In this document: in pieces, positions 23 through 28,345 of the stretch
Numbering within the stretch: position 1 is the stretch's first letter
Layout of the letters: each line of letters begins with the position of its first letter
Assembly (NCBI GenBank): GCA_041441465.1
Contig: JASDSY010000032.1
Coordinates: 66,539 to 130,538, forward strand
Reading direction: 5' to 3'
DNA: 64,000 bases
DNA from: Candidatus Wallbacteria bacterium
GTDB taxonomy: Bacteria; Muiribacteriota; UBA9980
Made by a program: the position numbers and the translations under genes
The notes under the pieces: generated by a model
What the model was told of the DNA's origin: nothing
The model's input: only the letters and a program-made list of their open reading frames with translations
Database searches by the model: none

Positions 23-1105
23 ATGAAATATCTCGGCCCTAAAGCCAATAAATTTGTGGCTTATGGCGTGGCTTCCGTTTCTGGAACAATCCTCGCCGTC
101 TGCTCCTGCACAATTTTACCTCTGTTTACAGGCATTTATAAAATGGGCGCCGGTCTTGGGCCCGCTATCGCCTTTCTTTATTCCGGCCCGGCGATAAGCG
201 TTCTGGCGATAATCATAACCGCGCGGATTCTCGGTCTTGAAATCGGTGTCGCAAGGGCTGTCGGCGCTGTTTCATTCAGTATTATAATTGGTGCTATTAT
301 GCATTTTATTTACCGGAATGAAGAATTGGAAAAAGTGAATGCGCAAATGTACATTGGCGAAACTGAGGAAAAAAGAAATCTCTGGCAGACCGCGCTTTAT
401 TTTTTCTCGATGGTCGGCATTTTAGTATTCGCTAACTGGGCAAAAGCCAGTGAAGCCGATCCAACATGGTTTTTTATATACGCAAATAAATGGGTCATTA
501 CAAGTGCTTTTGCTGTAATGTTTGCGGTGATATTAGTATTATGGTATGGCGTTAATATTTTTAAGATGCTGCTTTCGGCTGCTTCGGTATTTATCGCGTG
601 GATTTTGTTTCCGCATCAGCCTATGGCGCCTTTTATTGTCGGAGTTATTACGCTTTCAATAATAACAAGTTTTGATAAAGGCGAAACCGGTGAATGGTTT
701 AAAGCTTCGTGGGATTTTGCCAAACAGATTATGCCGTTACTGCTTGGCGGTGTTTTTATAAGCGGATTTTTACTCGGCCGGCCGGGCAATGAAGGGATTA
801 TTCCAAATGTATGGATAAGCCAGTCAGTGGGCGGTAATTCAATATTTGCAAATTTTATTTCATCTGTGATAGGCGCATTTATGTATTTTGCGACTTTAAC
901 TGAAGTTCCGATACTTCAGGGACTTATTGGAAGCGGTATGGGAAAAGGGCCGGCGCTTGCTCTTTTATTGGCCGGCCCGGCTCTTTCGCTGCCAAGTATG
1001 CTTGTTATTAAAAGCGTTATAGGAACTCAAAAAACTGCCGTATATGTAACTCTTGTTGTTATCATGGCGACAATAACCGGTTTATTTTATGGTATGTTTT
1101 TTTAA
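23..1105 (+). CDS. Multi-pass membrane permease (DUF318 / ArsP-like permease family)
   Basis: 360-aa ORF, almost entirely hydrophobic with ~8-10 predicted TM helices and repeated GPA/GxG motifs. Tightly followed by a DGC-domain gene and convergent with an ars operon. The window may cut the true N-terminus. Confidence 0.55.
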   Translation: MKYLGPKANKFVAYGVASVSGTILAVCSCTILPLFTGIYKMGAGLGPAIAFLYSGPAISVLAIIITARILGLEIGVARAVGAVSFSIIIGAIMHFIYRNEELEKVNAQMYIGETEEKRNLWQTALYFFSMVGILVFANWAKASEADPTWFFIYANKWVITSAFAVMFAVILVLWYGVNIFKMLLSAASVFIAWILFPHQPMAPFIVGVITLSIITSFDKGETGEWFKASWDFAKQIMPLLLGGVFISGFLLGRPGNEGIIPNVWISQSVGGNSIFANFISSVIGAFMYFATLTEVPILQGLIGSGMGKGPALALLLAGPALSLPSMLVIKSVIGTQKTAVYVTLVVIMATITGLFYGMFF

Positions 1106-1114
1106 ATTCAAATT

Positions 1115-1513
1115 ATGGAGGTAATCAATATGTCAAATGTGAATCAAAATTCATGCTCATGCAGTGCGGCTCCTAAACTAATATTTCCGTGTTCGGGCGG
1201 TTCGGATGTCGGTGAAATAACAGACCGTGCGGCGAGAAAAGTTACAATCGACGGTGCCGGAAAAATGTATTGCCTTGCCGGCATAGGCGGAGGAGTATCG
1301 GGAATAATCGCTACGACTGAATCGGCTGCCAAAGTTATTGCAATTGACGGATGCCCTTTGAGCTGCGCCAAAAAAACTCTTGAGAAGGCAGGTATAACAA
1401 ATATAATTCATATCAATCTTCATAATCTCGGCTTAGAAAAACTTAAATCTCCGGCGACTGAAGAAAATATAAATAAAGTTGCTGCCGAATGCGCTAAACA
1501 ATTAGGATGTTAA
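1115..1513 (+). CDS. DGC-domain protein (putative Zn/metal-binding, Cys-rich)
   Basis: 132 aa carrying CSCS, FPCSGG and a conserved 'AIDGCPLSC' DGC motif. Starts 10 bp after the permease (RBS ggagg), the usual permease-partner arrangement. Confidence 0.5.
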   Translation: MEVINMSNVNQNSCSCSAAPKLIFPCSGGSDVGEITDRAARKVTIDGAGKMYCLAGIGGGVSGIIATTESAAKVIAIDGCPLSCAKKTLEKAGITNIIHINLHNLGLEKLKSPATEENINKVAAECAKQLGC

Positions 1514-1561
1514 CTGGTAAATAATAAAAATATAAATCTAAACCAGTTTAATTTTATTATA

Positions 1562-1984
1562 TTAATTGGATATTTTGAATGTTTCTAATATCCAATTTTT
1601 TATTTCATCGCGTGTACTTCTAAAGGCTGTTTCAATTTCTTTAGGCGTGCCTGAAACATTTGACGGATCATTAAAACTATGATGGATTATTTTCCTGGCT
1701 CCTGGAATATACGGACAGGTTTCCTGGGCGCTGTCACATACGGTAACGACGAAATCGAAATCTGCCGCCTTGAATTCATCGACATTCTTAGAATAATGCG
1801 ATGAAATGTCAATGCCTATTTCTCGCAGAGTATTAATTGCGTTGATATTTACTTTTGTTGGCTCAGTTCCTGCGCTTGCTGCTTCATATTTTTCTTTAAG
1901 CAAAGCATTCATCAAACCTTCAGCTATCTGTGACCGGCAGGAATTATGAGTGCAGACGAAAAGTACTTTTAATTTCATTGTCAT
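1562..1984 (-). CDS. arsC: Arsenate reductase, LMW-PTPase family (thioredoxin-coupled ArsC)
   Basis: 140 aa with an N-terminal 'VLFVCTHNSCRSQIAEG' CX5R P-loop and downstream Cys pair (CDSAQETCP), typical of S. aureus-type ArsC. Last gene of the arsR-acr3-arsC operon. Confidence 0.8.
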   Translation of the reverse strand: MTMKLKVLFVCTHNSCRSQIAEGLMNALLKEKYEAASAGTEPTKVNINAINTLREIGIDISSHYSKNVDEFKAADFDFVVTVCDSAQETCPYIPGARKIIHHSFNDPSNVSGTPKEIETAFRSTRDEIKNWILETFKISN

Positions 1985-2025
1985 ACACCTTTAATAAAAA
2001 ATTGTGAACAAGTTTTTTCAATAAA

Positions 2026-3105
2026 TTAACAACTACATTTTTTTGTTTCAGCTTCAATATTTCTTTTGAAAAATATTTTACCAAACCAGAATGCCACATT
2101 AACAAGTGCTATCATTACAGGCACCTCTACAAGCGGGCCGATGACTGCGGCAAATGCCGCGCCGTGCTTGATTCCAAAAACGCCTACCGCAACTGCAATT
2201 GCAAGTTCAAAATTATTGCTTGCCGCGGTAAATGACAATGTCGTTGATTGCTCATAAGTGGCGTTAAAATTCATACTTAAAAAGAAACTTAATATGAACA
2301 TTACGACAAAGTAAATTAAGAGCGGTATTGCTATTTTTACGACATTCATCGGCTGCGCTATTATCTGTTGCCCCTGGATTGAAAACATTACAACAATTGT
2401 GAAAAGCAGTGAAATTAAGGTGAGCGGGCTTATCTTAGGAATGAATGATTTTTCATACCATTCTTTATTTTTGGCTTTGATTAAAGTGAAGCGTGTTATC
2501 ATCCCGGCGATGAATGGAATTCCAAGATAGATGAAAACGCTTACGGCGATATCTTTTATTGAAATATTGACATATTCGCCTTTTAATCCAAAATAAGGCG
2601 GTAAAATAGTGACGAAAATATAAGCGAATAAAGAATAAAACAATACCTGAAAAATTGAGTTAAACGCTACAAGGCCGGCGGCGTATTCGGTATCGCCTTT
2701 AGCCAGATCATTCCATACTATAACCATTGCGATACAGCGCGCAAGTCCGATTAATATAAGTCCTATCATATATTCAGGATAATCTTTTAAAAATATTATT
2801 GCCAACGCGAACATTAAAACCGGCCCGATTATCCAGTTCTGGACAAGCGAAAGCGTTAATATTCTGTAATTTCTGAAAACTTCTGATAATTCTTCATATT
2901 TAACCTTGGCAAGCGGCGGATACATCATCAAAATCAGGCCGAGCGCTATAGGAATGGAAGTCGTGCCTATTGAAAACTTCATAAGTATTTCATTAACTTG
3001 CGGAAATAAATAACCGCCGCCGATGCCGGCCGCCATCGCCAGAAATATCCATAAAGTGAGGAACCTGTCTAAAAATGATAATTTTGATGAAATGCCAGTA
3101 CTCAT
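2026..3105 (-). CDS. acr3: Arsenite efflux transporter, ACR3 family
   Basis: 359-aa 10-TM protein. N-terminus ([26 protein letters not shown]) and length are typical of ACR3/ArsB-type carriers. Sits between arsR and arsC. Confidence 0.75.
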
Positions 3106-3750: not shown

Positions 3751-3762
3751 TAACTGAGTTAA

Positions 3763-3836
3763 TGTGCCTGAGAGGAGTTGAACCTCCAACCTACAGATCC
3801 GTAGTCTGCCACTCTATCCAATTGAGCTACAGGCAC
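3763..3836 (-). tRNA. tRNA-Arg (anticodon ACG)
   Basis: Reverse complement reads GTGCCTGTAGCTCAATTGGATAGAGTGGCAGACTACGGATCTGTAGGTTGGAGGTTCAACTCCTCTCAGGCACA. It folds as a cloverleaf: 7-bp acceptor stem, anticodon stem GCAGA/TCTGT, loop CTACGGA giving anticodon ACG. Confidence 0.8.
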
Positions 3837-3867
3837 ATTAAATATTTATTGTCTTTTTCAATTTCAA

Positions 3868-3958
3868 CGGAGAGAGAGGGATTTGGACCCTCGATACAAC
3901 TTTAAGGTCGTATACACGCTTAGCAGGCGTGCGCCTTCGACCACTCGGCCATCTCTCC
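3868..3958 (-). tRNA. tRNA-Ser (anticodon GCT), class II with long variable arm
   Basis: Reverse complement begins GGAGAGATGGCCGAGTGGTCGAAGGCGCACGCCTGCTAAGCGTG. Anticodon stem CACGC/GCGTG, loop CTGCTAA, long variable arm. Acceptor is GGAGAGA/TCTCTCC. Confidence 0.8.
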
Positions 3959-3991
3959 AATAAGGCGCCATAGAAACCTATAAAAATAAAA

Positions 3992-4074
3992 CGGAGGAGG
4001 AGGGATTCGAACTCTCATATCCGCAAAGGACGGCAGATTTCAAGTCTGCTGCCATACCATTAGGCGACTCCTCC
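3992..4074 (-). tRNA. tRNA-Ser (anticodon TGA), class II
   Basis: Reverse complement begins GGAGGAGTCGCCTAATGGTATGGCAGCAGACTTGAAATCTGCCG. Anticodon stem GCAGA/TCTGC, loop CTTGAAA. Long variable arm, T-loop TTCGAAT, acceptor GGAGGAG/CTCCTCC. The T-stem has one A-C mismatch. Confidence 0.7.
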
Positions 4075-4118
4075 AATCAAGTGACATCATTATACCATGA
4101 TATTTTTTTTGTGTCAAG

Positions 4119-14356: not shown

Positions 14357-14869
14357 ATGGAATTATCTAACATGGTTCAAAAATTGCAAAATTTAGGACT
14401 TGAGTATGGTGTTATGTTTGTTACTGCGGCGGTCATATTTTTATTTGGGTTGTGGCTTGCGCGCTTCATATCTAAAATGACTGAAAAAGCTATGTTGAAG
14501 GCGAATATTGACGCTACTCTTTCCATGTTTACCGGAAATATAGTTTATTTTATCGTAATGATATTTATGGTGATGGCTGTTTTAGCCCGCCTCGGAATTC
14601 AAACCGCCTCATTCGTGGCAGTCATGGGCGCGGCCGGTCTCGCTATAAGCCTCGCGCTCCAGGGAACTCTGTCAAACGTTGCGTCGGGCGTTCTGCTCAT
14701 ACTTTTCAGGCCGTTCAAAGTCGGCGATAAAATTAAGGTCGTAGGCTTCGAGGGTACAGTCAAAGAAATCCAGGTATTTTCAACTATCCTTCATTCAACT
14801 GACAATAAAAGAGTAATTATACCTAATTCAAAAATTACCGGCGATATTATCATAAACGACACTATTTAA
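14357..14869 (+). CDS. MscS-family mechanosensitive channel, C-terminally truncated
   Basis: 170 aa with three TM helices and the start of the MscS beta-domain (FRPFKVGDKIKV...GTVKEIQVFSTILHSTDNKRVIIPNSKI). Stops ~110 aa short of a normal MscS. Confidence 0.55.
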   Translation: MELSNMVQKLQNLGLEYGVMFVTAAVIFLFGLWLARFISKMTEKAMLKANIDATLSMFTGNIVYFIVMIFMVMAVLARLGIQTASFVAVMGAAGLAISLALQGTLSNVASGVLLILFRPFKVGDKIKVVGFEGTVKEIQVFSTILHSTDNKRVIIPNSKITGDIIINDTI

Positions 14870-16748: not shown

Positions 16749-18692
16749 CTACATTTTAGGAATTGTTACCGTAACTCCTTTTCTGGCGTCATTATAGGAT
16801 TTATTGAATGTCGGGTCTTTTCCGAAATGGTCGTCGTATGGAAATCCATAAACTAACTTATCTATGGACAGGTCGTGGAGTATTTTAGAGTATAAATTGT
16901 ATTTGCCAGCATTTTGAACCGTAGTTTTATAAAAATTATCGGAATTACTCCAGTCGGAATCGCAGAAAACTCCGCGGTTAATTGCTGCCGTGATGCAGGC
17001 GTGAAGGTTTTTCTGAGCTTCCGTTCCTGAATTTTGAAGAGGCGCACCGTCGCAGTCCCAGATTACTTTGCTGCTTGGCTTTGACGTTATGTCGTAAGAG
17101 TCATTTACATTACTTTTACTGCCTCTGGCCACCGTGACTACGAAATGGCCTTTCAAGCTTGTTTCTTCGGTAATGACTCTGCCTTCATAATTCCAGCCGC
17201 TGTAAGAAAATTTGAGCTTATTATTTGAGTAATATTCCCAGCCGTTATCTATAGCCTTAGAAAAATAATTACTGAGCGAGTCAATTTGCTTTGGCGCCAT
17301 TACTCTCATGAATTTTTGGCTGCCGTCTTTTATGACGCAATTTTTCCAATCGGCGTCCGTTATTTTTTCGAAAGCGTCCTGGATATCTTTGTTATTGACT
17401 ATATTGAAGCCTTTTTCCTTGTTGTCTGAATTGAATTTCAGCTTGAACCCTATGCTCAAATAGTCGACAAGCGTAGTATTTAATGTTACAAGCGAGCCGT
17501 TGCAGGTAAGTTCGATCTTGTCGAATATCACATTTTTATAATTACCCATGTGGTCAGGCTGGATGAGTTTTTTTGTATCGCCGTCGGCGATTCCGAATAC
17601 GCCTTTGGTTTTGAAAAACATCCATAATCTTCCGCCGTACATATTTTTAAACGGGTGTATGTATTGGAATGTATTTTCCTTAGTCGAGTCAAGGTCGCTT
17701 AATGAGAAGCAAAATTTTTCGCCGGTCGGATTAGCCGCGGCTGAAACCATATCTTTGGTCCCTTTCTGGTCAAGGTAATAATAATTTCCGCTCTGGTCCT
17801 GCCCTATTACTGCAAGGTATATTTCTTCGGTCTTATATCCCGAATTATTGACAAGTGTTACGGGAAATCCGTCGACAACGGGCGTACCTTTTAAAATGAC
17901 GTGCGTTATTTCGCCTGCGGAAGCTACTACGTTGCCGGCCGATTCAAAATTATATCCTGCCTTTTCGGCTGTGATACTGTGGGCTTGCCCTAAAGCTGCG
18001 CCTTTAAAAAATGTCATGCCGTTATCCGATGTTTTCGCGGCTGTCCAGTCTATAACGCCTGTTTCCGGATTTGAATTGCCCCTTGAATCATACGCCGCCG
18101 CGGTGCTGCCGCTTTTTTTCAGTTCCACGGCAATCGATTCGTCCTCGCCGCCGTGCGAAAGGAATGGATACGCGTCCGAGTAAACGGTGATGTAAGCTTT
18201 GGCAGGATCGTAGTCGGAGCCGGTGAGGTTTTTCCATTCGGCTTGTGTAAATTGAGCAATGCTATGCTGCGTATCGGAAGTAATCTGAAAACTTGTCGAT
18301 ATTGGAATAACTCCCGTACCTGAAGTGATGAGCCTGTATTTGCCGGCGTATATGCCGGTGAAGCTGTAATTGCCGTTTTGATCAGTCGTAGTTCGTGAGG
18401 AAAAAAATGAAGGTGATTTTAATGCCGGAGCTTTTGATGAAATTTCAGCCGTCATGTCCGGGATAAGGTCGCATATTATATTTGCAAGTGGGGCTTTGGT
18501 GCCGGGACTTATTATCGTTCCGTTTATTGTGTATGTCGGAATAATGGTCGCCGAGTTATCACCGTTTAAAAGGCTGCCGCAGCCTGAAATTACGAATAAA
18601 AATCCCGGCAGAATACTAAAAATTGCCATTATTGCAAGCGTTAGTTTTAATGATGGATAACTGGCTAAAAGGTTTTTAATTTCACTTTTCAT
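16749..18692 (-). CDS. Secreted protein: N-terminal carboxypeptidase-regulatory-like beta-sandwich domain(s) plus C-terminal putative beta-1,3-glucanase (GH64/thaumatin-like) domain
   Basis: 647 aa with signal/TM anchor. 'GNYSFTGIYAGKYRLITSG' is a typical CarboxypepD_reg motif. The C-terminal ~400 aa is rich in aromatic residues and Cys pairs (DCDGAPLQN...HACITAAINRG, YGFPYDDHFG). The family call is from memory only. Confidence 0.3.
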   Translation of the reverse strand: MKSEIKNLLASYPSLKLTLAIMAIFSILPGFLFVISGCGSLLNGDNSATIIPTYTINGTIISPGTKAPLANIICDLIPDMTAEISSKAPALKSPSFFSSRTTTDQNGNYSFTGIYAGKYRLITSGTGVIPISTSFQITSDTQHSIAQFTQAEWKNLTGSDYDPAKAYITVYSDAYPFLSHGGEDESIAVELKKSGSTAAAYDSRGNSNPETGVIDWTAAKTSDNGMTFFKGAALGQAHSITAEKAGYNFESAGNVVASAGEITHVILKGTPVVDGFPVTLVNNSGYKTEEIYLAVIGQDQSGNYYYLDQKGTKDMVSAAANPTGEKFCFSLSDLDSTKENTFQYIHPFKNMYGGRLWMFFKTKGVFGIADGDTKKLIQPDHMGNYKNVIFDKIELTCNGSLVTLNTTLVDYLSIGFKLKFNSDNKEKGFNIVNNKDIQDAFEKITDADWKNCVIKDGSQKFMRVMAPKQIDSLSNYFSKAIDNGWEYYSNNKLKFSYSGWNYEGRVITEETSLKGHFVVTVARGSKSNVNDSYDITSKPSSKVIWDCDGAPLQNSGTEAQKNLHACITAAINRGVFCDSDWSNSDNFYKTTVQNAGKYNLYSKILHDLSIDKLVYGFPYDDHFGKDPTFNKSYNDARKGVTVTIPKM

Positions 18693-18792: not shown

Positions 18793-20691
18793 TTATTTTT
18801 CAATGAAGTAAAAATCATCCATCAGCGATTGATTTTCCCAGGGCAGCTGTTCTTTTGTCCTTGAATACACTTCTTTGCGCGTCTGCTGAAAAACCTTCAA
18901 AATATCGATACCCGGCTTTAAAATATTATTGACGAGCGCTTCCGTATAGGGGCTGTTCTGGCCGTCGCCGTCGCTTGCTGTCTGGTTAGGTGAAGTCGAG
19001 TAAGCGATTAAGGTGCCCTGCGCCGGATGATCTACGCTTGCGAGCCCGTGCGATAGACTGCGTTTAAAGCCTTTGCCGAACGGATTGTTGCGGCAGGCGT
19101 CAAGTATGATTATGGTTATTCCGGGACGGCCGGTACCGATTTCCTCGATTACCCAGTTGGCGTTTACGCATTCGTCCTCTATTTCATGCTCGTTTTTTAA
19201 GTCGAATTCGAGCGGCACGAGATAATTTTCGCCGTTATACTGCACTCCGTGGCCTGAATAGAAAAAAAGCGCGGCGCTGTCTTTATCAAGTTTCGAAACA
19301 TAGCTGCGTACGAGTTCCTTTATTTTTTTCTTGTTGAGGTTTTCGCCGCTAGTGACGTCGAATCCGCATTTTTTTAATGTTTTTTCCATAAGGCGCGCGT
19401 CATTTACCGTATTTATGAGTTTATTTTCGGCGTATTCAGAATTGCCGATGATTAGGGCATAACGCCTGGCGGAATTTTTAAGCTTATTGTCAGCTTTTGT
19501 TTGCTTTATTACACCGGCATTTTCACCGGCCGGCTCGGAAGATAAGGGGGCCCCGGCGGTATTGAACTTTTGTTCAGGTTTAATTTCTGCGGTTTTATTG
19601 TCCGGCGTTTGTGATGTTGAATCTGATTTAGGTTGATTTTTTCCGAGTTTTTCATTTAAAGTATTTAAATTATGCCTGGCCGAAGAATTTTTAGGATCTA
19701 ATTCCAGCGCTTTGCCGTAATCTTTAAGGGCTCCCGCGTTGTCATTATTGAATTCCAGCGCCACGCCTCTGGCGTTATAGGTATTTGAATAATTAGGATT
19801 TATTTCAATAGCTTTGCTGTAATCCTTGATAGCTGCGTCATTTGCTCCCTTATCCATATAAGCATTCCCGCGCCTGTAATAAGCCTCGTAATAGTCGGGC
19901 TTTAATGTAATTGCGCTGCCGAAGTCTTTTAAGGCATTTTCATAATCGGCTGCGGAATTATTTTTATTTTTTTTCATGTTATAGGCAATTCCGCGGTTAT
20001 AATATGCCTCGGCGTATTTCGGATTTAACTTGATCGCTTCCGTGAAATCGTTTATGGCGTCATCATATTTTTCTTTTTGATAATATGAATAACCGCGATT
20101 ATTATAGACTTCTGAATATGTCGAATTCATTTCCGGCGAATCGATTTTCAGTTTAATAGCCTCGCTGTAGTCATTGATTGCATTTTCATAGTCTTTTTTG
20201 GCTTGATAGGAATTGCCGCGGTCATAATAAATTTGCAAAGCGGCTGGATTTAATTCAATAGCTTTATCATAATATTGTACAGCTTTATCATAATTTACAT
20301 CGCTGTATATTTTCCCAAGCTCACAATATGCTTTGAAATATTTAGGATCAATTTCGATAGCTTTGTTAAAATTTTGTATGGCCATATCCAGATACATTGC
20401 GGCTTTTTTTTCGTCTAAATTGACTTTTGCGTCAAAACACTGCCGCCGGCGTGTGATTCCGCGGTTATAATATAACTCCGCTGATTCGGAGTTTAATTCG
20501 ATAGCTGTGTTATTGTCATTCATAGCCTTATCGTAGTCTTCTAATTCGTAATATGCCATGCCGCGCAGTTTATAATTGTCACTATCTTTAGGGTGAAGCT
20601 CAATGCATTTTTCAAGCTGCTTAACCGTCTCTAAATAGCTTGCTTTAGCTTTATCATATTCTTTTATTTCATTATAAGCCTTGCCAAGCAT
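18793..20691 (-). CDS. TPR-repeat protein fused to caspase-like (peptidase C14, orthocaspase) domain
   Basis: About 13 TPR units (AYYNRG/AIELNP repeats). The C-terminal domain has the caspase His-Cys dyad: 'YALIIGNSEY', 'FFYSGHG' and 'IIILDACRNN'. The reading frame continues open upstream to an in-frame TAA at 20815-20817. Confidence 0.75.
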   Translation of the reverse strand: MLGKAYNEIKEYDKAKASYLETVKQLEKCIELHPKDSDNYKLRGMAYYELEDYDKAMNDNNTAIELNSESAELYYNRGITRRRQCFDAKVNLDEKKAAMYLDMAIQNFNKAIEIDPKYFKAYCELGKIYSDVNYDKAVQYYDKAIELNPAALQIYYDRGNSYQAKKDYENAINDYSEAIKLKIDSPEMNSTYSEVYNNRGYSYYQKEKYDDAINDFTEAIKLNPKYAEAYYNRGIAYNMKKNKNNSAADYENALKDFGSAITLKPDYYEAYYRRGNAYMDKGANDAAIKDYSKAIEINPNYSNTYNARGVALEFNNDNAGALKDYGKALELDPKNSSARHNLNTLNEKLGKNQPKSDSTSQTPDNKTAEIKPEQKFNTAGAPLSSEPAGENAGVIKQTKADNKLKNSARRYALIIGNSEYAENKLINTVNDARLMEKTLKKCGFDVTSGENLNKKKIKELVRSYVSKLDKDSAALFFYSGHGVQYNGENYLVPLEFDLKNEHEIEDECVNANWVIEEIGTGRPGITIIILDACRNNPFGKGFKRSLSHGLASVDHPAQGTLIAYSTSPNQTASDGDGQNSPYTEALVNNILKPGIDILKVFQQTRKEVYSRTKEQLPWENQSLMDDFYFIEK

Positions 20692-20814
20692 ATAATAAGC
20701 TTCGTTAATACGGTCTTCTGAATTAATAATATCGTTATAGTATTTTATAGCTTTATCATATTCGCGTTTTGAGTAATATGCATTTCCTAATTTTAATAAT
20801 GCCGGCGAATTTTT

Positions 20815-21318
20815 TTAAAATAATTTCATCATTGTTTCATAATCTTTGATCGCATTATCACAGTCGTTTAAAATTAAATATAAATCGCCGCGATGCAGGT
20901 AAGCTAATTCGCAGTTCATTTTAATTGCTTTATTGTAGTTATCCATGGCCTGGTTATATTCATGTTTTTCGCGTAACGCGTCGCCTTTTCGCAAATATGG
21001 AACGTAATAATCGGGTTTTAAGCTTATTAACGCGTCGCAGTCTTTTATAGCTTTATCATATTCGTGTTTTTGCATATATGCGTCGGCGCGTACCTCGTAA
21101 TATTTCCAGTCAGGCTTTATTTCTATCGCTTTGGTTAAATATTTTATAGTTTCGTCATAATCGCCGGACCAATAACATGTATGGCCTTTATCAAAATAAG
21201 ATTCTGCTTGATTCGCGGCATTTGCGGTAGAATGAAAAATAAAGGAAAGTTGAAAAACTAAAATTGACATTAAAAGGCAAATATGAATGTGAAGACTTAT
21301 TTTTTTTACCATTTGCAA
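20815..21318 (-). CDS. TPR-repeat protein with signal peptide; in frame with the downstream TPR-caspase ORF
   Basis: 167 aa with signal peptide (LLMSILVFQLSFIFHSTANA) and four TPR units. A single TAA separates it from the 41 TPR-like codons that lead into ORF 18793-20691. Confidence 0.6.
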   Translation of the reverse strand: MQMVKKISLHIHICLLMSILVFQLSFIFHSTANAANQAESYFDKGHTCYWSGDYDETIKYLTKAIEIKPDWKYYEVRADAYMQKHEYDKAIKDCDALISLKPDYYVPYLRKGDALREKHEYNQAMDNYNKAIKMNCELAYLHRGDLYLILNDCDNAIKDYETMMKLF

Positions 21319-21617
21319 TTATCCCCCGCCATAATATTTTAAAAGAACTAATTGATTATTACCCAAAATATAATTATGATTGAATTTATCAGTATTAAAA
21401 AAGAATAACTTAAATGATAATTATTGTCAATGGATTTTTGATTAAATTGATTTGTTACGGCAAATATATTTTTGCAGTAATTAAAAAAATTATTAAAAAT
21501 ATATATTTACTGTTGCATTACATACAGATATAAGTTAAAATAACTCCAAATTTAAATGCTTGCTTTTTTAATCTAGAATATATATGGTTCGTATCATTAA
21601 GTCGGGAGGAAGTTCTA

Positions 21618-24290
21618 ATGAAAACATGGTTTTGTTTTGGGAAAATCCGTGAAGACGAAAATATAACGCCTGAAATGATTGTTAAAGTAATCGAAGACGG
21701 TCGGAAAATCGCTAGTGAATTTAAAAATGTGCCTCTGATAAAAATACTCAGGATATTAGAAAAAACATCAGACATATTAAATGACCCGAATCATCCTATC
21801 AGGATAGAAACCCTCGAAAGAATGCCTGAAATAATAGGCTTCACCAGGCCGATGGTTGAAACAGGCTTAAATACGCTGTGCGCCACAATGCGTGTCCCGG
21901 CGCTTCTGGCAAGACTCGACACCGATCTCGAGGATTCCAATTTTCTGGACGAATTTACATATCACAAAGTTTTTGACGGCTACATAAAAGCGGAACCCCG
22001 CGGCTTGATAGCTCACGTATCGGCCGGAAACGTTTTTATAGGGGCTGTCGATACACTTCTTCAGGGCATAATGACAAAAAACGTCAACATACTTAAAATG
22101 TCATCGATAGATACAGTATTCCCTATTTTATTCGCCAAAGCATTAAAAGAAGCCGATCCCGAAGGAATCGTCTCAAATACATTCTGCCTCGTTCCTTTTA
22201 AATCGGGCGACGAAGGCATAGAAAAAATAATTAAAGCCGAATGCAACGTTATAATCGTTTACGGCGGCAAGGAAGCCATAGAAGCTTACCGCAAAGGTCT
22301 CGGCGTGCATACCAAAGTCGTGGAATACGGCCCTAAATATTCCTGCGCCGTAATTGACGGCGGAATAATGAAACAAAAAGGCATAAATACTGTCGCAGCA
22401 AGTATGGCTCATGATTTCACGATGTGGGAACAATCGGCATGCTCTTCGCCGCATACGGTTTTTGTAAAAGGTGAAAAAGAGGCTAATGAATTTGCAAAGG
22501 CGCTTGCATGTGAACTTGAAAACTATTCAAAAATTTATCCTCATGGTAAAATTCCAGTAAATGAAAAAGTAGAAATAACCAAAAGCCGCGAACTCGCAAG
22601 AGTTCATCAAGCGCTTGGCGAGGCCGAACTTATTGTTCCGGCTGACGGATCACAGGAATGGACTGTGATATACGAAAAAAATTCAGAATTCAGGGTAAGC
22701 TGCCATCACAGAACTGCATATGTAAAACCGATTGCTGATTTTGATTCAGCAATCAAAACGCTCACGCCTTATGGTGAATATATTCAGAGTATAGCAGTTC
22801 TGGCTTCGCCGGCCGATACTTTTTATATATCGGAAAAATTATGCGCTATAGGCGCAGACAGAATCACAGAACCGGGAAATATGTCAAGGCGTAAAAATGG
22901 TACGCCGCACGACGGCACAAGAGGTACGGCGGAATTTGTGCGCTGGGTCTCGATCGGCCAGAAAAAGCCTCTTGAAGATCAATTTGATTACATGGATACC
23001 GCCGAAAGAGATAAACTTACGCTTGAACGCTTAAATTATCTGCTGGCATATTGCCGCGAAAAATCAGAATTTTACCGTGGCCGGCTTCCGGTAGAACCAC
23101 TCAAATCAATAAAAGAGCTTTCTAAAATTCCGATACTTACCCAGAAAGACTTCAGAGACCACCTTCCGCCTTCAGGCACCGGAATACTCACCGACAAACT
23201 TGGAAAAAGTTATTCATTCGGAAGCGGCGGCACTGTCGGCAAGCCGAAATTTGTATTCAGGACTATTGACGAAACGCGGCGCAACGCAAGAGCGCTGGCC
23301 AAAGGATTAGTAAATTCGGGATTATGCGAAGGCGATATTGTCGGAAATCTTTTCTTCGCCGGAAATATGTGGGCTTCTTTTGTAAGCGTAAATATGGCGC
23401 TTGAAGAAACAGGGTGCCATATACTTCCGATAGCGGGAAACGCCTGCGATATGGAAGCGATAATTTCATACCTGAAAGCATTCTCGGCAAACGTCATAAT
23501 ATCGATACCGTCAGTCATAATATCGCTTGCGCAATACGTCGAAAAAAATAAAATAACCGGAATTAAAATAGAAAAAGTTTTTTACGGCGGCGAGCATCTT
23601 TTTCCGGACGCTCAAAAATATGTAGCAAATGTACTGGGAGCAAAGATTATAGCATCGGCGGGATATACGACAAACGACACCGGAATGGCAGGATATCAAT
23701 GCCAGTGCTGCCGTGGCGGAATACATCATATAACAGAAAACATACATATAGTTGAAATAGTTGACCCTGAGACCAATATGCCGGTACCGGACGGCCGGGA
23801 AGGCAAAATTATACTTACAAACATAGACAGGTATTTAATGCCCATAATACGATACGAAATAGGCGATCTTGGAAGAATAATAACTGAGAAATGCGCCTGC
23901 GGAAGAACGCTTAAACTTATGGAACTTCTCGGAAGGGCCGACGAAGTGCTGATAATAGGCGGCGCAAATATCTCGCAGGATTCAATTGCTAAAGCCATTT
24001 CCAAAGTCGATGGGCTCTCATTCCATTTTAAAATGACGGCAAAATTGTCAGAAATGCACGACCTGCTCGTAGTCGAAGTCGAGGCGCTTGAAAAAATTTC
24101 AGAAGAAAAAGGCAGAGAGCTCGAAGGCAAGCTTTACGCAAGCCTTTTGTCTGAAAAACCTGAATTCGAATCATTTTTAAAAACTCAGAGCATCGCCAAA
24201 CCTATCGTCAAAGTTTTAAACCCGGGTGAATTACCGCGCAATCCTCGCACCGGAAAAGTAAAACATATGTCAGACGAAAGGAAAAACTAA
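21618..24290 (+). CDS. Fusion protein: LuxC-type acyl-CoA reductase domain plus adenylate-forming (PaaK/LuxE-like) domain
   Basis: 890 aa. The N-terminal ~450 aa resembles LuxC/ALDH-fold acyl-CoA reductases. The C-terminal ~430 aa carries 'SFGSGGTVGKPKFV' (P-loop-like adenylation motif; compare PaaK SSGTTGKP) and ends in 'GELPRNPRTGKVKH', also seen in the ORF at 28338-29627. Starts with RBS gggagga. Confidence 0.5.
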   Translation: MKTWFCFGKIREDENITPEMIVKVIEDGRKIASEFKNVPLIKILRILEKTSDILNDPNHPIRIETLERMPEIIGFTRPMVETGLNTLCATMRVPALLARLDTDLEDSNFLDEFTYHKVFDGYIKAEPRGLIAHVSAGNVFIGAVDTLLQGIMTKNVNILKMSSIDTVFPILFAKALKEADPEGIVSNTFCLVPFKSGDEGIEKIIKAECNVIIVYGGKEAIEAYRKGLGVHTKVVEYGPKYSCAVIDGGIMKQKGINTVAASMAHDFTMWEQSACSSPHTVFVKGEKEANEFAKALACELENYSKIYPHGKIPVNEKVEITKSRELARVHQALGEAELIVPADGSQEWTVIYEKNSEFRVSCHHRTAYVKPIADFDSAIKTLTPYGEYIQSIAVLASPADTFYISEKLCAIGADRITEPGNMSRRKNGTPHDGTRGTAEFVRWVSIGQKKPLEDQFDYMDTAERDKLTLERLNYLLAYCREKSEFYRGRLPVEPLKSIKELSKIPILTQKDFRDHLPPSGTGILTDKLGKSYSFGSGGTVGKPKFVFRTIDETRRNARALAKGLVNSGLCEGDIVGNLFFAGNMWASFVSVNMALEETGCHILPIAGNACDMEAIISYLKAFSANVIISIPSVIISLAQYVEKNKITGIKIEKVFYGGEHLFPDAQKYVANVLGAKIIASAGYTTNDTGMAGYQCQCCRGGIHHITENIHIVEIVDPETNMPVPDGREGKIILTNIDRYLMPIIRYEIGDLGRIITEKCACGRTLKLMELLGRADEVLIIGGANISQDSIAKAISKVDGLSFHFKMTAKLSEMHDLLVVEVEALEKISEEKGRELEGKLYASLLSEKPEFESFLKTQSIAKPIVKVLNPGELPRNPRTGKVKHMSDERKN

Positions 24291-24291
24291 A

Positions 24292-25773
24292 ATGGAAATA
24301 TGCAAATTTGAAAAACAAATCGCAAAAATTAACGTTAAAGCCGACATGAAATATATGCCGCCGATCCTTCAATTTGTCCATTCATTTTCGGAAAGCGAAG
24401 GGCTTTCATCCAAAAAAGCGACGCTTATGGAAGTAGCGGTCGAAGAAGCCTGCGTCAACGTCATTAAGCATGCTTACGCGCCGGACGAAGACGGCGATTT
24501 CGAAGTTGCCCTGCTGCGCCGCCCGAATCAAATCGTAATATCGATAGAAGATCACGGGCTTCCAGTCGATATGAAAGCGCTCGAAAAAAATGAAAATAAT
24601 AGCCTCGGCATAATGCTTATGAAATCGATCGCCGACGAAACTATTTTTCAAAACCTTGGCGAACGCGGAAAATGCATTAAAATAATTAAAAATATTTCTG
24701 AAAACTTCGAAGCGCTGAAAGAGCTGGCAAACAGGGAGCCGGCAGCCGTTGAAAAAGCGCCTGACAACGAACCGCTTGAAATAAGATTCATGAACCCGGA
24801 AGAGGCGGCTAAACTTTCAAGATGCATATATCACGCTTACGGCTATACCTATACGACGACATTTTATTATCCTGAAAAAATAACGGAAATGATAAATTCC
24901 GGAACGTTAAAATCAATCGTAGCATTGGATAAAAGCGGTGAAATAGTGGCGCACCTGGGATTAAAATTTCCCGCACCTGGCGCAAAAATTGCCGAATCAG
25001 CCCAGGCCGCGGTCAATCCAAAGTACAGAGGCCGCCATCTATTCGAGGACATGAAAAAATTTGCAGCCGAATACGCCAGAAAAACACAGATGTTTGGCCT
25101 GTACAGCGAATCGGTAACGCTGCATCCTTACACTCAAAAAGGAAATATTGCGTTAGGCGCCAAAGAAGTCGGCCTTATTCTCGCATATATTCCAGAAACC
25201 GCATTTTTTAAAAAAATACAGGTTGAAAATCAAAATCCTCAGCGTCAGGCAGCGCTGCTTTTTTACATGAAAACCTCTGAAAGCCCTGAACGCGAGGTTT
25301 ATTTACCGGAACGCCACACTGAGATAATAAAAAAGATATATTCCCATAACGAACTTAAAAGGACATTCGGCCGGGCGGCCAAATATGTGCCTGAAAAACC
25401 AACGGCGCTTGAAGTTGATTTCAGCCCGTATCTTAATGCCGCTATGATAATGATAAATTATATAGGAAGCGCTTTTACTTTTGAATTAATTTTAAAAAAT
25501 TACCGGCGCGAATTATGCGAAAAAAAAGCGTCCTGCATATATATTTTCATACCTCTTTCAAGCCCCGGCGCGCCATCAGCATGCGATGTAGCTGAAAAAT
25601 CAGGTTTTTCATTCGCCGGAATAATTCCTGAATATTTTTCGGGCGATTGCATAGTTTATCAATTTTTAAATAACGTAGAAGTTGACAGTGAAAGAATATG
25701 CACCGCTTCGGAATTCGCTCGCGAACTTTTAAAATATATAATTAACGAATACAATAACCGGAAAAAAAATTAA
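24292..25773 (+). CDS. Fusion: anti-sigma-factor-like HATPase (RsbW/SpoIIAB-type Ser kinase fold) plus GNAT-like acyltransferase domain
   Basis: 493 aa. The N-terminus 'EVAVEEACVNVIKHAY...FEVAL...ISIEDHGLP' matches the HATPase_c_2 signature. The central and C-terminal part has a GNAT-like pattern (VAHLGL...AAVNPKYRGRHLFEDM). The start is 2 bp after the upstream stop. Confidence 0.45.
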   Translation: MEICKFEKQIAKINVKADMKYMPPILQFVHSFSESEGLSSKKATLMEVAVEEACVNVIKHAYAPDEDGDFEVALLRRPNQIVISIEDHGLPVDMKALEKNENNSLGIMLMKSIADETIFQNLGERGKCIKIIKNISENFEALKELANREPAAVEKAPDNEPLEIRFMNPEEAAKLSRCIYHAYGYTYTTTFYYPEKITEMINSGTLKSIVALDKSGEIVAHLGLKFPAPGAKIAESAQAAVNPKYRGRHLFEDMKKFAAEYARKTQMFGLYSESVTLHPYTQKGNIALGAKEVGLILAYIPETAFFKKIQVENQNPQRQAALLFYMKTSESPEREVYLPERHTEIIKKIYSHNELKRTFGRAAKYVPEKPTALEVDFSPYLNAAMIMINYIGSAFTFELILKNYRRELCEKKASCIYIFIPLSSPGAPSACDVAEKSGFSFAGIIPEYFSGDCIVYQFLNNVEVDSERICTASEFARELLKYIINEYNNRKKN

Positions 25774-25793
25774 TAAAAGAAGGTGCGGAAAAT

Positions 25794-26912
25794 ATGCAAA
25801 ACATAGAAAACCTTTTTAAAAATAAAAATGCCTTTGATTTAAACGCGGAAAATCAGAATCTTTTTTTGGAAGCGATGAGAGAGGCTGTTGAATTTCATAG
25901 AAAAAACTCAAAAGTTTACGACGGAATATGCTCGCAGCATAATTTTTCGTTCGACCGCGACATAAAAAGCGAAAAAGACCTTTATAAAATACCTCATATA
26001 ATGGTTAACGTTTTCAAGGAAATAAAACTTCTGTCAGTTCCGCAGTCACAGATAACGCTTTCATTTACATCATCAGGCACCACCGGAATGACAAGCCAGA
26101 CCAATTTGGACGATATATCAATACAGAGACAGGGTTTCACAAGAAAATCTACAGTAGAAAGCTACGGCCTGGCTGCATACGACGAAGAAGTAAATTACGT
26201 TTGTTTTTCTTACGACCCGGAGACAAGCGGCACTAAAGGCGCGGCACACACACATACGGCATATACAAGTTTCGCTAAATCAAGAGAGACTTTTTACGCA
26301 ATATCGCGCGATGAAAAAGGCGAAGCAAAATTTAAAATAAACGAATGCATAGCCGCGCTCGACCGTTATAGCAAAAGCGGCCTGCCGCTTAGAATAACGG
26401 GGTTTCCTTCTTTCGGATACACGACTTTAAAAAAACTTGACGAAATGGGACAGCATTTTTCATTTCCGCAAAGCAGTGTTTTATTTTCTGGCGGCGGCTG
26501 GAAACTGCCGGGCGGCGATCCTATATCATTCGACGAATATTCGGAACTTGTAAAACGCGTCCTCGGAATCGCCAGAGACAGAATCAGAGACGTTTATGGA
26601 ATGATAGAGCATGGCATACCTTATATGACATGTGAATGCGGAAATTTCCATGTGCCGATATATTCGCGGGTTTATTCAGTCGATCCGGCGACGGCGGAAC
26701 TGCTGCCAGACGGCCAGACGGGGCTTTTAAAATTAATAACCCCTTACATACATAGTGTTCCGGCTATTTCGATACTCAGCACCGATTATGGCGTTATCGC
26801 CAACGACTGCAAATGCGGCAGAAAAACACCGCACATTATTTTAAAAGGCCGGGCAGGAGTAAAAAAATATGCCGGCTGCGGCATTTCCGCGGCTCAGCTT
26901 CTCGCGAGTTAA
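25794..26912 (+). CDS. LuxE-like acyl-protein synthetase / adenylate-forming enzyme
   Basis: 372 aa with 'LSFTSSGTTGMTSQ' adenylation motif. Size and N-terminus are consistent with the LuxE family. Confidence 0.45.
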   Translation: MQNIENLFKNKNAFDLNAENQNLFLEAMREAVEFHRKNSKVYDGICSQHNFSFDRDIKSEKDLYKIPHIMVNVFKEIKLLSVPQSQITLSFTSSGTTGMTSQTNLDDISIQRQGFTRKSTVESYGLAAYDEEVNYVCFSYDPETSGTKGAAHTHTAYTSFAKSRETFYAISRDEKGEAKFKINECIAALDRYSKSGLPLRITGFPSFGYTTLKKLDEMGQHFSFPQSSVLFSGGGWKLPGGDPISFDEYSELVKRVLGIARDRIRDVYGMIEHGIPYMTCECGNFHVPIYSRVYSVDPATAELLPDGQTGLLKLITPYIHSVPAISILSTDYGVIANDCKCGRKTPHIILKGRAGVKKYAGCGISAAQLLAS

Positions 26913-26971
26913 CAGCGGCTGATTTCTTTAATTGCATTCATACAGCACATTTTTTAAGGAGGCAACAATTC

Positions 26972-28345
26972 ATGGAACCCAAAAAGTTTATAAATGAAGT
27001 ATATAATAAAGTTCCGGCATATTCAGACTTTCTATCAAAACATTCCATAACTCCCGATTCGGATTGGGAATCAATTCCGCTTATAACGAAAAAAGATTAT
27101 CTGCTTTCATATCCGCTTGAAAAAATATGCTGGAACGGAACGCTTGACGGGTGTCATTTAATAGGCGCCAGTTCAGGGTTCAGCAAATCGGGAACGATTT
27201 TTTGGCCTAAAAGACCTGAGGATGAAAGGCATGCCCTGGAAGCAACTGAAAAAATGCTCATTGAACATCATAATTTAGATAAAAAAAAGACGCTGGTTTT
27301 AGTATGCCTGGCATTCGGCACATGGATAGGCGGAATGCAGATTGCCTCCGTAATGAGAACGCTGGCAACGGCGGGAAAGCATAAAATGACGGTTGCCACG
27401 CCGAGTTTAAATCTTGCAGAATCAGTTGAAATATATGATCGTTTCGGCTCTAATTTTGACCAGGTAATATGGCTTACCAATCCGTCAAACGTCAACCTTA
27501 TAACCGCTTTATTAAAAAAACGCGGCAAAAAAATAAAACCCGGCACCATATTTTTTGGAGTTATCGGCGAATACTTCACGGAAAACTTCAGGGAAAAAAT
27601 CGCCGCCGATTACGGCCATCCTCAGGACGAACCATTTTGTATATGGACAGGATACGGCTCAGCCGATACAGGCGATATAGCATCTGAAATCAAGAGCACA
27701 ATAAAACTGCGCAAGTTTTTTCATAAAAACGCAAAATTATGTAAGCAATTTTTCGGGTCAGAAAATGCGCCGATGATACTTGCCAAAAGCCCCAGCATTT
27801 TTGTCGAAATAATAAATGAAAACATAGTAGTTACCAAAGACCAGCTTGTGCCGCTTGTGCGATACGACACAAAAGACGCCGGCGGGCTTCTTTTTAAAAA
27901 AGACCTTGAAAATTCAGAAATTCCGAAGGAAATTGTAAGCGGCCTTCCGGACGAAATGGTTTTTGTATATGGCAGAGCCAGCGACGCCGTTATTTTTTAC
28001 GGCACAAACCTGCTGGTCGGAAATATTAACGATTTTCTACTATCGCTTCCTGCAAACTATTGTTACGGCGGTTTTTTTGAAGTAAGGACCAAAAAACGCG
28101 ACAATGTGACATCTTTTAATTTCACTTTATTTTTAAATACCGATCCGCAGGAAGAGCTTAAACATGAATACGAAACGCAGCTGATAGCGTTTTTAAAATC
28201 GCAAAGCCTTGAATTTAACGCTAAATATGACGCATTATGCAATTCAATAGGCGAATCGCTAATTACGGTGGAATTGAAAAAAATTAATTTTTCAACGGCG
28301 ACGTTAAAACACCGCTATGTAATCGAGGAGGATAAAAATGTTTAA
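26972..28345 (+). CDS. PaaK/F390-synthetase-like adenylate-forming enzyme
   Basis: The ATG at 26972 is preferred over the longer upstream ORF: RBS aaggagg lies 8 bp upstream, and the longer form would overlap the previous gene by ~100 bp. Motifs 'IPLITKKDY' and 'IGASSGFSKSGTIFWP' are typical of the phenylacetate-CoA-ligase-like family. Confidence 0.5.
   Translation: MEPKKFINEVYNKVPAYSDFLSKHSITPDSDWESIPLITKKDYLLSYPLEKICWNGTLDGCHLIGASSGFSKSGTIFWPKRPEDERHALEATEKMLIEHHNLDKKKTLVLVCLAFGTWIGGMQIASVMRTLATAGKHKMTVATPSLNLAESVEIYDRFGSNFDQVIWLTNPSNVNLITALLKKRGKKIKPGTIFFGVIGEYFTENFREKIAADYGHPQDEPFCIWTGYGSADTGDIASEIKSTIKLRKFFHKNAKLCKQFFGSENAPMILAKSPSIFVEIINENIVVTKDQLVPLVRYDTKDAGGLLFKKDLENSEIPKEIVSGLPDEMVFVYGRASDAVIFYGTNLLVGNINDFLLSLPANYCYGGFFEVRTKKRDNVTSFNFTLFLNTDPQEELKHEYETQLIAFLKSQSLEFNAKYDALCNSIGESLITVELKKINFSTATLKHRYVIEEDKNV

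Follow-up and report, generated by a model that had tools for sequence, protein, structure and literature searches.

Does a single stop codon interrupt one gene, or do two genes merely share a reading frame? The question is raised by a locus on the minus strand of a 64,000-nt stretch of contig JASDSY010000032.1 (the window, to which all positions refer), from a metagenome-assembled genome (MAG) that NCBI labels Candidatus Wallbacteria bacterium. Here an upstream open reading frame (ORF), ORF1, encoding a tetratricopeptide repeat (TPR) protein with a predicted export signal, is followed in the same frame by ORF2, which encodes further TPRs and a caspase-like C14 protease (source proteins MEZ7893032/33). 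An initial annotation of the DNA had read the pair as one exported TPR-caspase gene of ~840 aa carrying one nonsense codon, and had offered recent pseudogenisation, a sequencing error and stop-codon read-through as explanations. The frame is continuous across the stop, and the stop is real and common to all strains found. We think it probable that the locus is a young nonsense pseudogene, in which the protease has been cut off from its export signal, or at most a trace-level gene.

Results

One reading frame with a single internal TAA

On the minus strand, a single TAA (20815-20817) breaks a frame that otherwise runs open from 21318 to 18796; this TAA is codon 166 and lies in the context AAA TTA TTT TAA AAA AAT TCG. 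Upstream of it, ORF1 (20818-21312) has 165 codons that specify a signal-like N terminus and TPR units 1 to 4, the fourth of which is cut at position 31. Its product matches TPR_1 with an E value of 1.1e-22, and both NCBI and Logan call it as a 165-aa protein. These two gene calls, together with a GGGGGA at 21322-21327, make the ATG at 21312 a likelier start than the TTG at 21318 that had first been chosen. The TAA is followed by 41 sense codons (20692-20814), which cover the tail of unit 4, the whole of unit 5 and residues 1 to 5 of unit 6. ORF2 (18793-20691; ATG at 20689-20691, final TAA at 18793-18795) then comprises 632 codons plus the stop, and encodes nine TPR units, a low-complexity linker and a C14 caspase-like domain. 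Re-derivation of the layout thus returned the arrangement originally described, namely two ORFs in one frame, a single TAA between them and 41 codons to the downstream ATG. The repeat count fared less well: the four TPRs assigned to ORF1 are there, but ORF2 holds nine and not 13, with one more in the gap and ~14 in total.

The 14 units were placed with a TPR profile built from 724 repeat units of homologues, and they form an array at 19687-21207 (minus strand) that spans the stop codon. Pfam searches of the merged translation found TPR_1 in 11 stretches (E 1.4e-80) and a Peptidase_C14 domain (PF00656; 18808-19467, minus strand) that scored 144.7 bits against a cut-off of 21.4 (E 4.8e-42). The match takes in the entire C14 model (profile positions 1-233 of 233), and the domain ends 4 residues short of the C terminus. 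The catalytic dyad is intact, as had been noted, with the His at residue 688 in the motif YSGHG (19249-19251) and the Cys at residue 740 in LDACR (19093-19095). Neither the NCBI nor the Logan annotation flags 18793-21312 as disrupted. The two differ in where they begin the downstream coding sequence: NCBI uses Met45 of ORF2 (588 aa), whereas Logan uses the ATG at 20691 (632 aa).

The repeat register continues through the stop

Searched by itself, the 41-residue gap peptide exceeds the Pfam threshold for TPR_1 (30.3 bits against a cut-off of 27.8; E 3.4e-7) and does so in register, bearing out the initial view that these codons are bona fide TPR sequence. From base composition alone, the chance that 41 codons stay open is ~0.06, so the strong evidence is the TPR match and its exact register rather than the open frame as such. 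Contiguous 34-residue units occupy residues 135-168, 169-202 and 203-236, and the register is unbroken through the stop. The TAA falls in the consensus Pro slot of unit 4 (position 32), and the Met of ORF2 is position 6 of unit 6, within helix A. Since the stop stands exactly at position 32 and the register on either side is intact, the lesion is a substitution within the codon and not an indel.

Homologues that combine TPRs with a C14 domain are consistent with this continuity. A signal-like hydrophobic N terminus is present in 30 of 33 of them, and in 15 of the 16 that have the TPR-then-C14 order; the sixteenth appears to be N-terminally truncated. Relative to the full-length architecture of these homologues, the in-frame stop of the window gene is premature.

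Predicted export and translation-start signals belong to ORF1

The N terminus of ORF1 carries a predicted export signal (21217-21312, minus strand), composed of MVKK, a 22-residue hydrophobic stretch and the sequence HSTANA↓A. Its best 12-residue Kyte-Doolittle mean is 2.69, inside the signal-like range of the homologues, compared to -0.1 for ORF2. The export call combines the n/h/c pattern with this hydrophobicity score, and the ANA↓A cleavage motif was read by eye; the protein is thus predicted to be secreted, where the initial annotation had simply called it so. Given the length of the h-region, a signal anchor instead of a cleavable signal is also possible.

The GGGGGA upstream of the ORF1 ATG is Shine-Dalgarno (SD)-like and gives an anti-SD duplex energy of -8.6 kcal/mol. 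Further upstream, the best match to a sigma-70-like promoter, TTGACA-17-TATTCT (10/12 positions), is a candidate at 21402-21430 on the minus strand. For comparison, the median duplex energy is -7.6 kcal/mol at window gene starts and -1.7 kcal/mol at 360 in-frame internal ATGs. The ATG of ORF2, at -0.2 kcal/mol, has no SD and resembles the internal ATGs, not the gene starts. There is no ATG, GTG or TTG among the 41 gap codons, and a search for terminator-like sites from ORF1 to the end of ORF2 was negative. Register continuity, the TPR in the gap, the start of ORF2 without an SD and the signal-TPR-C14 architecture of the homologues together support a single ancestral gene, which would have encoded a signal peptide, 14 TPRs, a linker and a C14 domain; the ~840-aa exported TPR-caspase with one nonsense codon, as first proposed, is supported by the same four lines.

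The two ORFs might nevertheless function separately, ORF1 as a small exported TPR protein and ORF2 as a cytoplasmic TPR-caspase produced by internal initiation at the ATG at 20691 or by re-initiation. Both NCBI and Logan annotate two genes, the arrangement is common to all strains found, ORF2 has its His/Cys dyad intact, and ~40% of the listed window ORF starts are also without a strong SD. However, the ATG falls inside a TPR helix (position 6), and an in-register TPR in the gap would be unneeded if the gap were untranslated. The distance from the stop to the ATG is 123 nt, which we judge to be far for termination-reinitiation. Not only does this ATG lack an SD, but the disagreement between the 588- and 632-aa starts also indicates that there is no clear start signal. 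In addition, nearly all homologues are predicted to be exported, and no standalone ORF1-like or ORF2-like orthologue was found outside the species cluster. We regard a functional split as unlikely.

The nonsense allele is shared across strains and datasets

A different concern is that the TAA might stem from faulty sequencing or assembly, or might be a rare variant that one assembly happened to catch. The stop adjoins a T4A7 homopolymer pair, and our inspection was of assembled consensus sequences, drawn from different pipelines (NCBI, JGI, ENA and Logan). Yet a homopolymer indel cannot make or remove an in-frame stop and keep both sides in frame, as we checked by translating the frames by hand. 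Moreover, the same TAA and junction, ATGATGAAATTATTTTAAAAAAATTCG, are found in eight assembled contigs (L001 and L006-L012), which represent at least five datasets and three haplotypes; the junction is identical across these related contigs. Contig L001 (Logan, SRR24078314) matches the window over 6065 nt with 100% identity. Contigs L006-L011, none of which has a further stop, derive from NCBI GCA_964574735.1, JGI 3300010348 and 3300025691, ENA ERZ778038, and Logan ERR3438382 and ERR3438383, and the one from ERR3438382 was seen again across 10 samples. They encode a second 165-aa member of the ORF1 protein cluster, which carries two substitutions. A metagenome scan in which the stop position was replaced by NNN returned one TAA contig and nothing else, and no literature on the sample accessions was found. 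The nonsense allele is real, and the sequencing error that the initial annotation had entertained is excluded by its recurrence; for error or a rare variant of any kind we see only a very small chance.

The three haplotypes are distinguished by two large indels and by point changes. At a breakpoint at 20224-20225 (minus strand), the haplotypes other than that of the window carry 306 extra bases, corresponding to exactly 3 TPR units (1305-1610 of L006); this indel sits at a short repeated YxDRG sequence. A 147-nt (49-codon) linker segment at 19469-19615 (minus strand), inside a recombinant tract described below, is missing from L008 and L009. The gap shows zero substitutions among the haplotypes, and the intergenic DNA on the flanks has 4 differences in 206 sites. 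There is no difference in the interval 21002-20628 around the stop, which hints at locally reduced diversity, although the numbers are small.

The stop predates the divergence of the sampled strains (~1-2% in flanking DNA). A pseudogene is still the favoured explanation, but the word "recent" that had been attached to it needs this qualification. In this uncultured species the nonsense allele may have reached fixation or come close to it. Comparison with orthologues, suggested at the outset as a check, was confined to copies within the species, all of which share the TAA; beyond the species cluster no orthologue was found. Apart from the protein itself, a search with the full-length sequence gave no match of more than 45% identity, the search with ORF1 only gave no match outside its own species cluster, and a scan of genome contigs with the C14 part revealed no relative.

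Recoding, frameshifting and read-through

A change of genetic code, with TAA encoding an amino acid throughout the organism, would account for the single in-frame TAA and for nothing more. TAA is the commonest stop in the window: of the 40 ORFs that reach 150 aa, 29 end in it. The window has five pairs of long open segments that share a frame; the TAA-split gene is one, and the other four have other likely explanations. One consists of the adjacent ArsP and DGC genes, and we read the remaining three as antisense shadows because they lie within the span of long opposite-strand ORFs. The window contains no suppressor tRNA and no UUA anticodon; its tRNA cluster (3762-4075, minus strand) has three genes, Arg-ACG, Ser-GCU and Ser-UGA. 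The initial judgement that genome-wide recoding is unlikely is thereby upheld, and we consider its probability negligible. Frameshifting, slippage or hopping at the T4A7 sequence was also considered and rejected, as the +1 frame ends after 7 codons and the -1 frame after ~19. With the other frames closed, only in-frame read-through would restore the TPR sequence.

Leaky or programmed read-through of the TAA would give mostly the four-TPR stub and a small fraction of full-length exported TPR-protease, with the frame kept by selection. In keeping with this, all three haplotypes within the species retain both the stop and the frame, no second lesion is present, and the TPR in the gap is still perfect and in register. 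In Salmonella enterica, nonsense pseudogenes are known to be translated at a low level; read-through of these "pseudo-pseudogenes" was mostly at UAG in that study, and the adjacent base was most often C (PMC9122581). The present locus is similar in having one in-frame stop, an otherwise intact downstream frame and the possibility of trace read-through. It differs in that its context is UAA followed by A and in being known from sequence alone. This context is not one found to be leaky, and UAA is the terminator of most long window ORFs. In addition, folding of a 161-nt segment around the stop is no more stable than that of shuffled sequence (z +0.76), ruling against a stimulatory RNA structure, Rfam has no match, and the window supplies no suppressor tRNA.

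Substitutions downstream of the stop

Several observations weigh against a pseudogene. Downstream of the stop, the window and L006 differ by 24 synonymous and 11 nonsynonymous changes, and the ratio of nonsynonymous to synonymous polymorphism (pN/pS) is 0.06 in the C14 part. If these changes arose after the stop, they would indicate purifying selection and a still functional ORF2. The three haplotypes, which are 1-2% or more apart and differ by two large indels, retain 670-770 downstream codons free of stops and frameshifts. Finally, an allele with a sense codon at the stop was found in none of the sequences searched, and so we infer the intact ancestral state without direct sight of such an allele.

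The distribution of the changes bears on the first of these observations. Between the window and L006, 21 of 33 variable codons fall within codons 611-727 (Fisher P 3e-10), and 21 of the 22 codons with L008-specific variation fall within codons 526-613, beside the linker indel (Fisher P 8e-23). Both tracts look like recombinant imports from divergent, unobserved donor alleles; no C14 paralogue that might serve as a gene-conversion donor is present in the window. Because the tracts appear to come from more divergent alleles, the synonymous excess may predate the stop. The pN/pS of 0.13 for the whole of ORF2 includes the recombinant tracts, and we rejected it as proof of ongoing selection since the synonymous excess lies in the two tracts.

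Outside the tracts (codons 1-525), ORF1 shows two nonsynonymous and no synonymous changes, the gap none, and ORF2 seven nonsynonymous and four synonymous changes. This pattern is indistinguishable from neutral (P 0.19-0.37), with low power. L006 has changes at conserved TPR sites, Pro32-to-Leu and Gly8-to-Ala, and a relaxed constraint on ORF2 is plausible. A random substitution creates a stop with a probability of 3.5-5.8%, so the lack of a second stop after 11-35 substitutions is unremarkable: under neutrality, 11 substitutions would leave the frame free of a new stop with a probability of 0.5-0.7 and 35 substitutions with a probability of 0.12-0.29, which makes the intact frame mildly unlikely at most.

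These data also bear on read-through. ORF2 as a whole has more synonymous than nonsynonymous change, as selection on a read-through product would predict. However, the excess is limited to the recombinant tracts and the remainder is 7:4 in favour of nonsynonymous changes, while the zero substitutions in the gap leave that segment uninformative on selection. Combined with its stop context, this makes us doubt that the TAA is read through in a selected manner, and we give that explanation a small probability; neither it nor an independent translation of ORF2 gains positive support from our results.

A probable course of events

The favoured explanation, a nonsense pseudogene, would then have the following history. 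The ancestral gene would have encoded an exported protein with an N-terminal Sec-type signal, ~14 TPRs, a flexible linker and a C-terminal clan-CD C14 protease. Before the sampled strains diverged, a single base substitution would have turned the codon at position 32 of the fourth TPR into TAA. Translation from the ORF1 start would now halt after 165 residues and yield an exported four-TPR stub. The 673 protease-bearing downstream codons have neither a ribosome-binding site nor an export signal, and they would therefore give a trace product at most. ORF2 is thus, as far as its signals indicate, presumably untranslated, and the disrupted gene would not yet have gained a second lesion.

The protease and its relatives

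The merged protein is predicted to be a protease, a bacterial TPR-associated caspase homologue of clan CD, family C14 and the orthocaspase type. Orthocaspases are separated from metacaspases by the absence of a p10 domain, and an association of bacterial caspase homologues with TPRs has been reported (PMC6426788). A protease of this type would be expected to cleave after basic residues. The order of its parts (a signal-like N terminus, a TPR array, a linker and a C-terminal C14 domain with a His/Cys dyad) is that of the bacterial TPR-C14 peptidases P0016, P0030, P0039, P0045, P0048, P0078, P0081 and P0100. In contrast to these, it has a stop after its fourth TPR, and it is only 30-45% identical to them, mostly owing to the TPRs. 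NCBIfam gave only sub-threshold generic TPR matches.

The closest solved structure by sequence is the MALT1 paracaspase domain (PDB 3v4o, 6f7i and others; E 5.6e-10). The alignment spans only 126 residues and takes in the GHG histidine and the D-x-C-R cysteine motifs (LDMCR in MALT1). MALT1, however, is a eukaryotic protease of intracellular signalling; it has death and Ig domains but neither TPRs nor an export signal.

Neighboring genes

Directly downstream of the TPR-protease locus, at 16749-18692 on the minus strand, lies a gene for a GH64 beta-1,3-glucanase (E 2e-46) with a CarboxypepD_reg-like domain and a lipoprotein-type N terminus (…ISGCGS). Hence, another predicted exported enzyme stands beside the TPR-protease. 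On the other side, the interval 21618-28345 encodes an 890-aa LuxC-AMP-binding fusion, an HATPase_c_2 protein, a LuxE-like acyl-protein synthetase and further ORFs. The LuxC-like gene is divergently oriented and has relatives that are 75-81% identical in contigs L003, L004 and L005, whose MAG labels are "uncultured bacterium", Eubacteriales and Pelotomaculum. Synteny traced through this gene showed that the upstream regions in L003-L005 are unrelated. Either mobility of the LuxC/LuxE-type cluster or unreliable MAG labels could account for this. Two of the ORFs in this interval, 25794-26912 and 26813-28345 (plus strand), overlap by 100 nt in different frames, and the second (510 aa) is without a Pfam match; the overlap could be an over-extended start or a frameshift. 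A link of the locus to a defence system was rejected, as PADLOC gave only a weak generic caspase match and the neighbours are the GH64 glucanase and the LuxC/LuxE-type cluster.

Two more distant regions contain further points of gene structure. An MscS-like gene at 14357-14869 (plus strand; 170 aa) ends just past the beta-domain without the C-terminal domain and is followed by ~750 nt that have no long same-strand ORF; it may be truncated. At 23-3105, an ArsP_1 permease, a DGC-domain protein, an LMW-PTP-type (ArsC-like) protein and an SBF/ACR3-type transporter make up what looks like an arsenic-resistance-type group. Its ArsP_1 and DGC genes share a frame and are separated by a TAA and 9 nt, and they are normal neighbours, not a split gene.

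Discussion

The immediate value of these findings is for annotation. NCBI and Logan both call two unrelated-looking "tetratricopeptide repeat protein" genes at a locus that is a single frame across one nonsense codon, and in which the signal for export and the predicted protease stand on opposite sides of the stop.

Alternatively, the TAA may be maintained. An inefficient stop, or re-initiation, would then provide an abundant exported stub together with a little full-length exported or cytoplasmic protease, possibly in a condition-dependent manner. We give this possibility a slim chance. If it were true, the export of a caspase-like enzyme would be gated by translation termination. Similarly, should the downstream protease still be expressed, the locus would be a natural case in which a stop codon uncouples an export signal from a caspase-like protease, but nothing we found requires that.

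With the nonsense pseudogene as the probable interpretation, the locus offers an example in population genetics: a nonsense allele that is common to all sampled strains in metagenome assemblies from several studies, in a gene that still exchanges TPR units and segments around the stop by recombination. A gene disrupted by a nonsense codon is an ordinary kind of event, which in this uncultured species is unusually well documented at the population level.

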